From: an uncultured Candidatus Binatia bacterium
GTDB taxonomy: Bacteria; Desulfobacterota; Binatia; UBA9968; JAJDTQ01
DNA: 64,000 bases
Direction of reading: 5' to 3'
Assembly (NCBI GenBank): GCA_964291295.2
Contig: OZ219754.1
Coordinates: forward strand, 1,920,001 to 1,984,000
Below, in pieces: positions 9,472 to 13,099 of this stretch. Numbering within the stretch: position 1 is the first letter of the stretch; every line of letters begins with the position of its first letter. A model generated the notes under the pieces. That model ran no database searches. It was not told the DNA's origin and saw only the letters and a list, made by a program, of their open reading frames with translations. The translations under genes and the position numbers were made by a program.

Positions 9472-10659
9472 ATGAACGCCAACGAAGCGGCACAACGCAT
9501 TGAGGAAGCGCTGGACGACGGCGAACTCCGGCGTCTCCTGGTGAAGCTGCTGCAGACTCCCAGTCCCCAGACCGAGCTGCTGGAGAGGGAACCGCAGGTG
9601 CAGGCGCTCATCCGCGACGTGGTGCGGCCCGAACTCGAGGCCGATGGCGTGCAAGCCGCCATTGACGACATGGGCAATCTGACGGCGCGGTTGCCGGGCC
9701 AGGGCAAGGCGCCGGGTCTGGTGCTGGTGTCGTACGCCATGAACGCCGCACCCGGCACCATGCCCGATCCGTACTCCGGGAAGATCGTGGACGGCACGCC
9801 CTATGGACTCCAGGGGCCGTGCGGCTGGGGGCGCGGTGCGTGCGAGCAGAAGGGCAGCCTGGCGGCCATGCTGAGCGCGGTGAAGCTTGTCGCCCGGAGC
9901 GGATGGAAGCTGCCCGGCGACCTCTTCTTCGTCACCAGCACCGCCGGGGAAAGCGGCAAGCACGAATCCCTGGACTACGTGCTGTCGGGCGGCGTCATCG
10001 ACGCGGACTGGGGCCTCATCGACGGTCCGCCGGAGATCCAGTTGGGCAACAAGGGCCGCATCGACGTGCGCATTGTCGTGCGCGGCCGCGCCGCCCACAG
10101 CAGCCGCCCGTGGGACGGCGTCAACGCGGTGGACGGCGCGGTCAAGGTGCTGGAGAGGCTGGCGCCGATGATGCCCTTTCCCGAGGACAAGCGGCACCCG
10201 GAGCTGGGCCGGGCGTCGCTGACGCCCACGGCCATCGAAAGCTACCCCAAATCGACCCACACCATTCCCGGCGAGTGCCGTATCCGGATGGACCGCCGGC
10301 TGTTGCCCGGCGATGACGCCGATCGGGCGGTGGCGCAGATTGCGGACGCCATTGGCCGCATCGAGCCCTGCGAGGTGGCGCTGGAAAAGGAAGCGTTCAT
10401 GTATCCGTGCGAGGTGGGGAGGGACGCCGGCGTGGTGGTGGCCTTGGGCGGCGCGATCCGGACCATGCTGGGCCGGGAGCCGGAATATTGTTTTTCCACC
10501 GCCGCCAACGACACCGGACTGCTCAACGTCCGGGGCATCGAGACCGTCAACTATGGCTCCCGGGCGGTGCGATTCCAGCACACGGACGCCGACCTGGTTC
10601 CGCTCAGGAGCGTCATCGAAGCGGCCAAGGTGTTCCTGTTCATGGCGCTGCACCGTTGA
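9472..10659 (+). CDS. M20/ArgE/DapE-family metallopeptidase or deacylase with atypical metal ligands
   Basis: 'GRGACEQKG', 'GRAAHSSRPWDGVNAV', 'IPGECRIRMDRRLLPG' and a C-terminal 'QHT'. Confidence 0.8.
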   Translation: MNANEAAQRIEEALDDGELRRLLVKLLQTPSPQTELLEREPQVQALIRDVVRPELEADGVQAAIDDMGNLTARLPGQGKAPGLVLVSYAMNAAPGTMPDPYSGKIVDGTPYGLQGPCGWGRGACEQKGSLAAMLSAVKLVARSGWKLPGDLFFVTSTAGESGKHESLDYVLSGGVIDADWGLIDGPPEIQLGNKGRIDVRIVVRGRAAHSSRPWDGVNAVDGAVKVLERLAPMMPFPEDKRHPELGRASLTPTAIESYPKSTHTIPGECRIRMDRRLLPGDDADRAVAQIADAIGRIEPCEVALEKEAFMYPCEVGRDAGVVVALGGAIRTMLGREPEYCFSTAANDTGLLNVRGIETVNYGSRAVRFQHTDADLVPLRSVIEAAKVFLFMALHR

Positions 10660-10675
10660 CGCCGGCCCGGGCGCC

Positions 10676-10725
10676 GTCATTCCCGCACAAGCGGGGGTCC
10701 GGGGGTGGCAGGGCTTCGGAATGAC
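10676..10725. repeat. Degenerate REP-like palindromic element
   Basis: gtcattcc...ggaatgac outer arms around an inner cccgc-acaa-gcggg hairpin. Resembles the widespread GTCATTCCCGC..GCGGGAAT repeat family. Confidence 0.5.
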
Positions 10726-11032
10726 CGCAGCCGCTCTTGGGAAAGTCCGATCAGGGCGCTGGCGCGATATTCAACTGCTCGCAACCTGTTGATTTCATTG
10801 ATTCAGCCCCAGCGAACGCAGGGCTTTTCAGACCTTTCCTTGGGGTCGAGGGGGGGTCAACCGGCCCCGAGGCCCGACGTCGCCACCGCGGGGCTCTGCC
10901 CGATTATCCGTGTAAAGCGGGGCTATGGGGGTTACGATGCTTGGTGTACGGCTTCACGAATTGGGCATGGTCCGCGACCGTGCCGAACGCACCCCAAGCG
11001 GAGGTGATTTGACAAAGCGGTTCGGGAGGCCA

Positions 11033-11061
11033 TTGAATTTTTGTTCAGTTATATGTAAAGT
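11033..11061 (+). promoter_or_regulatory. Putative sigma-70 promoter of the TAC operon
   Basis: TTGAAT-N17-TAAAGT in an AT-rich stretch just before the toxin gene. A TTGACA also occurs at 11009. Confidence 0.4.
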
Positions 11062-11070
11062 GGTTGAGGT

Positions 11071-11451
11071 GTGGTTTCTCCAATTGCAGTTGAGTCGTAT
11101 TACAGCGTAGTTTGGGCGGTGGATGCGTCCAGAAAGAGTCCAGCCCGCAACTTCTTTTCGGGGTTGACCAGAGAGGAGCAAGCGAAGGTTCTGGCGCTTT
11201 TCAGACGATTGGCCGAGCACGGTCATATCAAGAATCGAGAGCGGTTCAAGAAACTCGAAGTGAATGGCGGGACGCTATGGGAGTTCAAGTCATTTCAGCT
11301 CAGGTTCATTGGGGACTTTCGTCCCGGAAAAGTGTTCGTCGTGGCCTATGGCCTTCGGAAGAAGTCTTCCAAGCATAAACCAAGGGATCTGAAGACGGCT
11401 GCGAGAATACTTGACGAAGACTGTGCAAGGAGGAAAGGAAATTATGGATGA
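11071..11451 (+). CDS. RelE/HigB-like (Gp49-type) toxin of a toxin-antitoxin-chaperone module
   Basis: 126 aa basic protein with 'SPARNFF..L', 'FKKL', 'LWEFK..QLRF', 'VVAYGLRKKS.K'. Overlaps the downstream HTH gene in toxin-first order. Confidence 0.85.
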   Translation: MVSPIAVESYYSVVWAVDASRKSPARNFFSGLTREEQAKVLALFRRLAEHGHIKNRERFKKLEVNGGTLWEFKSFQLRFIGDFRPGKVFVVAYGLRKKSSKHKPRDLKTAARILDEDCARRKGNYG

Positions 11452-11725
11452 CGAGAACCTCGTCCTGCTTCGACAGGAAGAGTTGATTCTGGATGTGACC
11501 GAAGCTCTGGTGGGGGCACTGCAAGACGCCAACGTAAGCCGAAAGGAACTGGCCGATCGTCTTGGCCGTACGCCCGGCTACGTGTCCCAAGTGTTGGGGG
11601 GTGGCAGGAATCTGACGCTCCGAACGGTGTCCGATATCGCACTCGCACTGGGGGTGAAGCCTGTCTTCGGGGTCTCTCTGGATGCGCGTCAGTCCTTTGA
11701 TGGGTTGCCGGATGCCTCTGAGTGA
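11444..11725 (+). CDS. XRE-family HTH antitoxin (HigA-like); reading frame continues past TGA to 11836
   Basis: HTH 'VSRKELADRLGRTPGYVSQVLGGGRNLTLRTVSDIALALG'. RBS AGGA before ATG 11444, overlapping the toxin stop. Confidence 0.85.
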   Translation: MDDENLVLLRQEELILDVTEALVGALQDANVSRKELADRLGRTPGYVSQVLGGGRNLTLRTVSDIALALGVKPVFGVSLDARQSFDGLPDASE

Positions 11726-11863
11726 CCGCTGGCGGCTCAGCAATGGCTGCGACAGGATCCTCGATGGGAGGCATCGTTCGCTGATGACCGATCCTGTACC
11801 CCCTGTTACGATCCCGGCCAGCTTTGCGCAGCTTAGCAACATTGGCAGGACTCTACGATTGAC

Positions 11864-12322
11864 ATGTCTGAACTACCGAAAGTCGCTTCGGTCGCACAGT
11901 TCCAGAGCGTGAGGCTCAGCGATGGCAGTTTCCGTTCGATAAGGATTTCCGAAGCTGCGGATGAGGTTACGATTAGTTTGTCGCATGATGCCGTAGTCCT
12001 GGCGGAGCCCCGAGACGGAGCCCCGTTTCTTGTGGAAGTACGCTTCAGGTTTGAAGCTCTGGGGAAGGACGACGGTAAAAGGAGCAAAAGCAACAGGAAA
12101 CAGGCAGAAATTCAGGGGACGTTTGAATTGACATATCGGCTCCCGGACGGCGAGGCCTTCTCAATGGATGACTTGACAGCCTTTGGTCAAGTCAACGCCG
12201 TGTTCAACGCGTGGCCTTATTGGCGTGAGTATGTTCAGTCTTCTTTGGCTCGAATGTCGATGCCCATTGTGACAATTCCACTCTTCCGAGTGGAAGCCAC
12301 CAAACCGGAATCCACCAAATAG
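11864..12322 (+). CDS. SecB-like chaperone (TAC chaperone)
   Basis: 152 aa. C-terminal 'NAVFNAWPYWREYVQSSLARMSMPIVTIP' parallels the SecB signature (N..aiLfPY.Re.i......g.Ppl.lp), preceded by alternating beta-strand segments. Confidence 0.8.
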   Translation: MSELPKVASVAQFQSVRLSDGSFRSIRISEAADEVTISLSHDAVVLAEPRDGAPFLVEVRFRFEALGKDDGKRSKSNRKQAEIQGTFELTYRLPDGEAFSMDDLTAFGQVNAVFNAWPYWREYVQSSLARMSMPIVTIPLFRVEATKPESTK

Positions 12323-12349
12323 CGCCAGCCGGTGACCTCTTCTGGATTC

Positions 12350-13099
12350 TCAGTTGTTCTTGTTCGCGATCAGGACGACGTCCGGGGACGGGGCGATGCG
12401 GGGCTGGATCTCCAGCCGCACGGCCTCCCTGAGAGCGATCCCCTGTACGGTCACGCGGGCCCGGTAGGGGTATATCTCCACCCCGGCGCGGGCCGCGCGG
12501 CGCAGCCAGCGGCCGTATGCCGCATCGATCTCGTCGGCGGGCCTGAAGGAGGCGCACGGTCCACGCTGGATGATGAACAGCAGCACGGCGCGATGGCCCC
12601 GCCGCCGCAGCCGGATGAGTTCCTTGAGGTGCCGGGTGCCGCGCTCGCTGACGGCGTCCGGGAAGAGGGCGACCCGGTCCACCATCAGCGTCACGTTCTT
12701 TACTTCCACGTAGCATAGCTGCGAGGGCTTCTCGAGAAGAAAGTCCAGCCGTGATCCCGGCCGGGTCGGCACCTCGGCACGGAGGCTCCGGTAGCCCTGC
12801 AACTCCCGGATCACGCCGGTCTCGATGCCCTCCCGCGCCAGTCGATTGGCCGCCAGGGTATTGATTCCCACCAGGCTGCGGCCCACCCGGATGAGTTCCC
12901 AGGTATAGGGAAGCCTGCGGTTCCTGCCGTGTTGTTCCGAGAGCCAGACCGGGCTGCCGGGCGCGCTGCAGCCCTTCATGCTGCCGGTGTTGGCGCAGTG
13001 GGCGGTCACCACCGTGCCGTCGTCGAGATGAACGTCCGCGAGAAATCGCTTGTAGCGCCGAATCAGGGTTCCGGGCACGAGCGGACGGGAAAAACGCAT
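12350..13099 (-). CDS. sfsA: Sugar fermentation stimulation protein / DNA-RNA nuclease SfsA
   Basis: 'RRYKRFLADV', 'HCANTGSM', 'SRLDFLL', 'YVEVKNVT', 'FPDAVSERGTRHL'. Confidence 0.95.
   Translation of the reverse strand: MRFSRPLVPGTLIRRYKRFLADVHLDDGTVVTAHCANTGSMKGCSAPGSPVWLSEQHGRNRRLPYTWELIRVGRSLVGINTLAANRLAREGIETGVIRELQGYRSLRAEVPTRPGSRLDFLLEKPSQLCYVEVKNVTLMVDRVALFPDAVSERGTRHLKELIRLRRRGHRAVLLFIIQRGPCASFRPADEIDAAYGRWLRRAARAGVEIYPYRARVTVQGIALREAVRLEIQPRIAPSPDVVLIANKNN

Follow-up and report, generated by a model that had tools for sequence, protein, structure and literature searches.

The window, by which we mean the whole 64,000-nucleotide stretch of uncultured Candidatus Binatia DNA that was analysed, carries at 11071-12322 what sequence comparison and structural modelling identify as a toxin-antitoxin-chaperone (TAC) cassette. 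Its first gene encodes a HigB/Gp49-type toxin (11071..11451, + strand; 126 aa from a GTG start at 11071; Pfam PF05973 Gp49, E 5.1e-8), and the toxin frame overlaps by 8 nt the start of the second, an XRE/HigA-type antitoxin gene that as now terminated occupies 11444..11725 on the + strand (93 aa from ATG 11444; Pfam HTH_3, E 3e-7). The 93-aa antitoxin consists of a conserved N-terminal helix, the HTH and a tail of just 15 residues, and is closed by a putatively premature TGA at codon 94 (11723..11725, + strand; context GAG-TGA-C), which lies in a variable linker with a conserved Pro directly after it. Behind this TGA the same frame stays open for 36 codons until a TAG at 11834-11836, and the cryptic tail so delimited (11726..11836, + strand) resembles a chaperone-addiction sequence (ChAD) in that it holds W100-L-R102, P-R-W108 and a terminal Ala-Ala of the ClpX-degron type; its two Trp are accompanied by a Phe, a Tyr and a CTPC motif. 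The hidden tail contains no in-frame ATG, GTG or TTG and therefore has no start codon of its own. A 27-nt spacer (11837..11863, + strand) leads from the hidden TAG to the ATG at 11864 of a SecB-like TAC chaperone gene (11864..12322, + strand; 152 aa, apparently intact; phmmer against PDB 5mtw, Rv1957, E 5.2e-7), which thus begins 27 nt after the TAG as against 138 nt after the TGA. An earlier note on this DNA had given the same positions for the TGA and TAG, the same 36 open codons and 27- and 138-nt spacers, and the same peptide with its W, W, F, Y, CTPC and terminal Ala-Ala, with all of which the sequence agrees; its assignment of the locus to the TAC systems is supported by the locus census, the tail alignment and the literature described below.

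Several of the features by which a TAC system is recognised are present at the locus: a toxin gene directly upstream, an antitoxin with an XRE HTH and a SecB-like third gene, all on the same strand. The translated antitoxin carries no ChAD extension, the ChAD-like sequence being found only behind the TGA. The 93-aa product likewise ends in Ser-Glu and not in the free C-terminal Ala-Ala or Val-Ala of an ssrA-like ClpX degron, since Ala-Ala is confined to the terminus of the untranslated tail. A promoter and terminator scan of 10600-12500 returned no match.

The identity of the third gene was examined by sequence and by fold. Compared with a profile of 32 SecB-like family members the chaperone scored E 2.6e-13, and it retains 5/5 invariant columns of 32 related chaperones; the window chaperone had no Pfam hit of any kind, and the Pfam SecB model gave weak matches in 7/32 relatives. 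The AlphaFold2 model of the 152-aa protein reached a pLDDT of 88.7, and a Foldseek search with this model returned 5mtw at the top (TM 0.76/0.83), followed by the SecB proteins of E. coli and H. influenzae. Rv1957 is accordingly the best match of the window chaperone in both sequence and fold, at only about 20% identity, and in a protein search with the chaperone the best relative among the matches listed was 52% identical. The antitoxin core is similarly preserved: among the 651 antitoxin homologues found, every invariant column falls inside residues 11-69, and all of these columns are retained in the window. The toxin retains 11/11 columns that reach at least 85% conservation across 49 related toxins, and it departs from the family majority at position 8 (E for G, the residue in 41/49), position 10 (Y for W, 31/49), position 93 (Y for H, 30/49) and position 100 (S for D, 31/49).

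The cassette (10660-12349) coincides with a trough in GC content, at 50-60% compared with about 65-73% in the surrounding DNA, and is flanked by a peptidase-like gene and an sfsA-like gene whose junction is variable in the genus. These two genes abut in one genus relative and lie 0.9-1.1 kb apart in five, one of which holds an alpha/beta-hydrolase-like ORF between them; in five further genus relatives sfsA was not within 1.5 kb of the peptidase-like gene. The cassette was absent from this junction in all relatives examined, and no tRNA was found near it. An exact 12-nt direct repeat joins 10701-10712, upstream of the cassette, with 11597-11608 in the antitoxin HTH, and is probably a chance match of G-rich DNA. 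The antitoxin locus is single-copy in its own genome.

The antitoxin can be compared with related sequences at three distances. Contigs from two sequencing runs of one study, X1 and X2, both contain the TGA at 11723-11725; the X1 contig equals the window exactly and is probably its source, while the X2 contig, from another sample collected in another year, differs from the window by a single base (11188) over 10900-12081. A more distant relative, about 93% identical and covering 10948-12400, comes from the public run X3, in a 6078-nt contig at a depth of about 560. It differs from the window by about 100 substitutions and by four indels: single bases are lost at 11032, 11602 and 11776, and a 25-nt unit is tandemly duplicated after 11819. 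The duplicated unit corresponds to window 11820-11844, which includes both the last codons of the hidden tail and the TAG, and the stop triplet becomes a sense triplet in the extra copy; together with the 1-bp deletion at 11776 the duplication gives a net gain of 24 nt. The deletion at 11602 adjoins a run of six G (11596-11602) inside the HTH, and is either a homopolymer error of the X3 contig or a frameshift of very recent origin. Among the first 40 differences listed between the window and X3, antitoxin codons 1-62 show 9 synonymous changes and 1 non-synonymous change, and the antitoxin core is therefore considered to be under purifying selection. The corresponding count for the toxin is 8 synonymous and 13 non-synonymous changed codons, from which the toxin looks relaxed or diversifying; this excess of non-synonymous change, taken with the minority residues at positions 8, 10, 93 and 100, suggests that the window toxin may be weakened. 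A close relative with a sense codon at position 94 was sought and found in none of 41 relatives and 28 genus genomes, where the best match had 68% DNA identity. An exact 40-mer scan of metagenome and genome contig collections gave 0 matches in each, and a protein search with residues 58-130 gave no candidate. The matches listed in the protein search with the chaperone included neither the window's own chaperone nor an X3-like protein, and that database is therefore uninformative about X3. None of these searches yielded a close relative with a sense codon, so which way codon 94 changed, and when, can only be inferred.

To place the window among its homologues we compiled a census of 71 non-duplicate loci (10 duplicate places removed) from same-genus genomes and 67 MAG records, comprising the window itself, 37 loci with a downstream same-strand SecB-like gene, 32 without one (including L075, which is cut by a contig end) and 1 with a chaperone remnant only. 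Antitoxin tails past query residue 78 measured at least 40 aa in 37/37 chaperone-linked loci (range 40-60, with the row for L023 mis-measured), compared with 2-67 aa in the loci lacking a chaperone. An Ala-Ala or Val-Ala ending occurred in 28/37 of the former and 1/32 of the latter, and a Trp in the tail in 33/37 and 5/31, respectively. The gap between the antitoxin stop and the chaperone had a median of 32 nt and was at most 88 nt in 32/37 chaperone-linked loci, these gaps depending on chaperone start codons that were chosen heuristically. In its annotated form, with a 15-aa tail and a 138-nt gap, the window antitoxin is the sole short-tailed chaperone-linked antitoxin in the census. Read through the TGA, it would have a 52-aa tail, an Ala-Ala end and a 27-nt gap, values typical of the chaperone-linked group, in which an in-frame stop within the tail was found in 0/37 loci. 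The Fisher test of chaperone presence against an [AV]A ending gave p 1.8e-10 on rows that are mutually related; since supported branches in a tree of the 78-aa cores yielded only 2 independent pairs (median p 0.5 in a sign test), this value is overstated. The family pattern is the strongest evidence on the hidden frame.

A complementary view of the tail was obtained from a HMMER search with the read-through protein, in which the TGA was rendered as Trp, against 1.84 billion representatives (3713 hits). Among the 149 non-self matches listed, about 16 alignments extend past query residue 100, and that of P0153 spans residues 8-129. Alignment of the hidden tail with the 16 homologues whose HMMER alignments reached into the tail revealed a common pattern of E-x-P-[VL]...W...(P/Q)-x-W...AA, in which W108 owes its invariance in part to the choice of members, these having been picked by alignments reaching the tail. 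Codon 94 aligns with N, F, L, E and S, and the conserved Pro follows immediately. Because the residues opposite codon 94 are variable, the ancestral codon cannot be named, and the guess in the earlier note that a TGG had become TGA cannot be shown. The idea that codon 94 was the first conserved Trp, with the spacing seen in P0025, was rejected when the wider alignment placed a variable residue there. The CTPC motif is judged incidental, as CxxC occurs in 0/68 relatives' tails, compared with 20/583 random post-stop peptides.

The consequences of separating a TAC antitoxin from its tail can be judged from characterised systems. In PMC5105189 the C-terminal extension of TAC antitoxins is described as the chaperone-addiction sequence, and deletion of the ChAD yields an active, chaperone-independent antitoxin; a study of E. 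coli HigBAC reports that ChAD deletion likewise gives a chaperone-independent antitoxin (bioRxiv 10.1101/2024.02.24.581848). The latter source identifies the C-terminal Ala-Ala of CmdA as a ClpX degron and describes a phage protein that rivals the ChAD for chaperone binding. For HigA1, PMC8165232 places a Val-Ala degron within the ChAD, and PMC6377645 gives the key contacts as a Trp and an Arg two residues on, in two repeats. The M. tuberculosis HigB1-HigA1-SecB(TA) system (Rv1955-Rv1957) shares with the window its gene order and its combination of a HigB/Gp49-type toxin, an XRE-HTH antitoxin and a SecB-like chaperone. The mycobacterial ChAD combines Trp-x-Arg motifs with a terminal aliphatic-Ala ClpX degron, to which the W-L-R and Ala-Ala of the hidden tail correspond. 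In the window, by contrast, the ChAD lies behind a stop codon, and the two tails are not alignable. With its ChAD behind a stop, the window product corresponds to the engineered C-terminal deletion of PMC5105189.

A similar comparison can be drawn with the E. coli NT1F31 HigBAC and CmdTAC antiphage TAC systems, in which the antitoxin is stabilised by the chaperone via an aromatic-rich disordered ChAD (bioRxiv 10.1101/2024.02.24.581848; PMC11618068). Removal of that ChAD is described as converting the system to a classical TA pair, whereas the window antitoxin is truncated naturally. The toxin family of CmdTAC differs from that of the window toxin. Two-gene HigBA relatives, represented by the 32 census loci without a chaperone, have tails that are mostly short and Trp-less, with 1/32 ending in [AV]A, and functionally the 93-aa product of the window would belong with these antitoxins. 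Since an intact chaperone gene and a tail remnant remain, the window looks intermediate between the three-gene and the two-gene states. In the portions of the literature on chaperone addiction, nonsense mutation and readthrough that our search covered, no description was found of an in-frame stop before a ChAD.

Taken together, we consider it likely that a lineage-specific nonsense mutation removed the ChAD and degron from a TAC antitoxin, leaving an in-frame remnant and an orphaned chaperone. This reading corresponds to the first of the options raised by the earlier note, a nonsense mutation cutting off the ChAD, and draws its support from the census, the tail alignment and the literature. 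It has to be set against explanations in which the stop is an artefact, the hidden tail is a coincidence, or the TGA is decoded. The genome is apparently metagenome-assembled, as the records of its relatives suggest, and such assemblies can carry errors, but an assembly or sequencing error at 11723-11725 is extremely improbable given that the X1 and X2 contigs agree at the TGA and that a base substitution is not typical of assembly mistakes. Coincidence would mean that residue 93 is the natural end of the antitoxin and that the tail-like frame is ordinary intergenic DNA. The open frame is no argument against this, because at least 36 open codons follow the stop in 60% of 4720 long ORFs of this genome, so that 36 open codons by themselves are uninformative; the same family also includes short-tailed antitoxins, such as some from loci that lack a chaperone. 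Three similarity tests of the tail were moreover not significant. A whole-protein profile scored the read-through frame at 140.7 bits compared with 139.0 for the core alone (+1.7), which 14/200 shuffles equalled, and in Smith-Waterman comparison with the first 105 tails the observed maximum was reached by 45/300 shuffles and 139/583 genomic null peptides. Against 217 homologue tails the top local alignment score was 47, to P0153, a score equalled by 15/583 genomic post-stop peptides and 10/500 shuffles (about 2-3%), and the general likeness of the hidden tail to homologue tails is thus weak. What tells against coincidence is the combination of specific features. Post-stop extensions ending in [AV]A were found in 31/1533 likely real genes, those that also had a length of 25-45 in 5/1533, and those that had at least 2 Trp in addition in 0/1533; W.R together with an [AV]A ending occurred in 1/583 genomic post-stop peptides. 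The P0153 alignment runs gapless over all 36 residues and reaches the end of P0153, all 37 chaperone-linked relatives have tails of at least 40 aa, and the hidden frame matches the family in length, Trp motifs, Ala-Ala end and spacer. We therefore regard coincidence as very unlikely.

Decoding of the TGA could take the form of functional leaky read-through, in which ribosomes decode UGA-94, most simply as Trp, often enough to yield both a short stable and a long chaperone-addicted, ClpXP-labile antitoxin, whose ratio tunes the trigger. Such a switch would account for a hidden tail that has kept its ChAD-like features and acquired no further stop or frameshift, and for a chaperone gene that is intact in its 5/5 invariant columns and its confidently predicted SecB fold. 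In E. coli, UGA terminates weakly when a C comes next, and the earlier note had cited UGA-C as a weak stop context; in the present genome TGAC ends more of the likely real genes than any other stop tetranucleotide (323/1534), and the context is for that reason not a special mark. The 71 nt that begin at the stop were no more stably folded than their shuffled versions (z 0.23) and gave no Rfam match, and chance alone accounts for 36 open codons in this genome. By extension from the ChAD deletions, the toxin would be expected to stay neutralised by surplus stable short antitoxin even with a minor long isoform present. The proposed check for homologues with a conserved TGA turned up an in-frame stop in 0/37 chaperone-linked relatives, and neither conservation of stop and frame among the relatives nor a stimulatory signal in the local RNA, by which programmed read-through is recognised, was found. 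A read-through switch, for which we obtained no positive evidence, is accordingly unlikely, and a more elaborate version, in which a UGA at the junction of core and ChAD is kept as a leaky stop whose termination efficiency tunes toxin release, for example through release-factor depletion by stress or phage, is decidedly unlikely. The remaining form of decoding, insertion of selenocysteine (Sec) at UGA-94 to create a Sec plus CxxC redox-sensing tail, has one correct premise, as the genome does decode Sec: it contains a canonical tRNA-Sec (C1:3122135-3122229) and a selB that scores above the curated cut-off (364.9 compared with 242.25 bits). A second ARAGORN tRNA-SeC call (C1:3566974-3567274, anticodon tca, 100 nt) has mismatch-filled stems and is probably false. 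Beyond this genomic capacity, a hairpin of 7 bp, which has a GCAA loop and a bulged U, begins 7 nt past the TGA, and CTPC lies 23 residues downstream of UGA-94. Of 200 shuffles of the hairpin region, 113 fold at least as well as the region itself, and no match to a SECIS family was found in Rfam at E up to 10. Cys is never opposite position 94 in the tail alignment, the site falls in a variable, disordered linker and not in a redox motif, and CxxC is absent from all 68 relatives' tails. The window resembles selenoprotein and programmed UGA read-through genes in that, within a genome that decodes Sec, an open frame continues behind an in-frame UGA, and differs from them in lacking a SECIS element, Cys or Sec homologues and a stop conserved in relatives. 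The Sec tail is largely refuted by these results and must be counted as exceedingly improbable.

Loss of the ChAD by nonsense mutation would have proceeded as follows. A low-GC TAC cassette comprising the HigB/Gp49-type toxin, the XRE/HigA-type antitoxin and the SecB-like chaperone would have arrived by horizontal transfer, and a point mutation would then have converted antitoxin codon 94 to TGA in the variable linker just ahead of the ChAD segment. Translation would stop after residue 93, so as to keep the N-terminal helix and HTH but lose the Trp/Arg chaperone-binding motifs and the Ala-Ala degron, which would survive as the untranslated in-frame remnant at 11726-11836. By analogy with ChAD deletions in two other TAC systems, both from other bacteria, from which we extrapolate the behaviour of the 93-aa form, the short antitoxin should be soluble, beyond the reach of ClpXP targeting and no longer in need of the chaperone. 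The toxin would then stay permanently neutralised, the module would no longer be triggerable and the chaperone gene would be redundant, and we regard the chaperone of the window as probably orphaned. The earlier note had described such a system as disarmed, which would hold in the sense that the module is likely silenced; because the published ChAD deletions give an active antitoxin, the predicted outcome is a locked toxin and not a lost antitoxin. The anatomy of the locus, the family pattern and the presence of the TGA in two samples are observed, and from them we infer that the tail was lost, that the loss was recent, and what it does to the antitoxin; an intact chaperone and purifying selection on the antitoxin core fit a recent mutation, and equally fit continued use of the chaperone.

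Three same-genus loci show other decay states of the same family and count toward loss of the ChAD at the window locus. At L002 the antitoxin departs from that of L003 after 'LPDSR', at the point where the first tail Trp of L003 follows, and no chaperone gene was found; L005 has a weak chaperone remnant only, which overlaps a tail without an [AV]A end; and at L003 the toxin is split across two frames. The locus does not reveal a new mechanism, and it carries a warning for annotation, since the 93-aa gene call conceals a recognisable remnant of the tail. If the proposed loss is correct, the window captures in nature a TAC module in the course of being 'de-addicted', in which one nonsense mutation mimics the laboratory ChAD deletions: a three-gene system that could be triggered becomes a locked two-gene one that still has an intact chaperone gene beside it. 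Considered with the decay states in the same genus, it would suggest frequent interconversion between TAC and TA systems in this antitoxin family, and that toxicity after horizontal transfer may be suppressed via loss of the ChAD.
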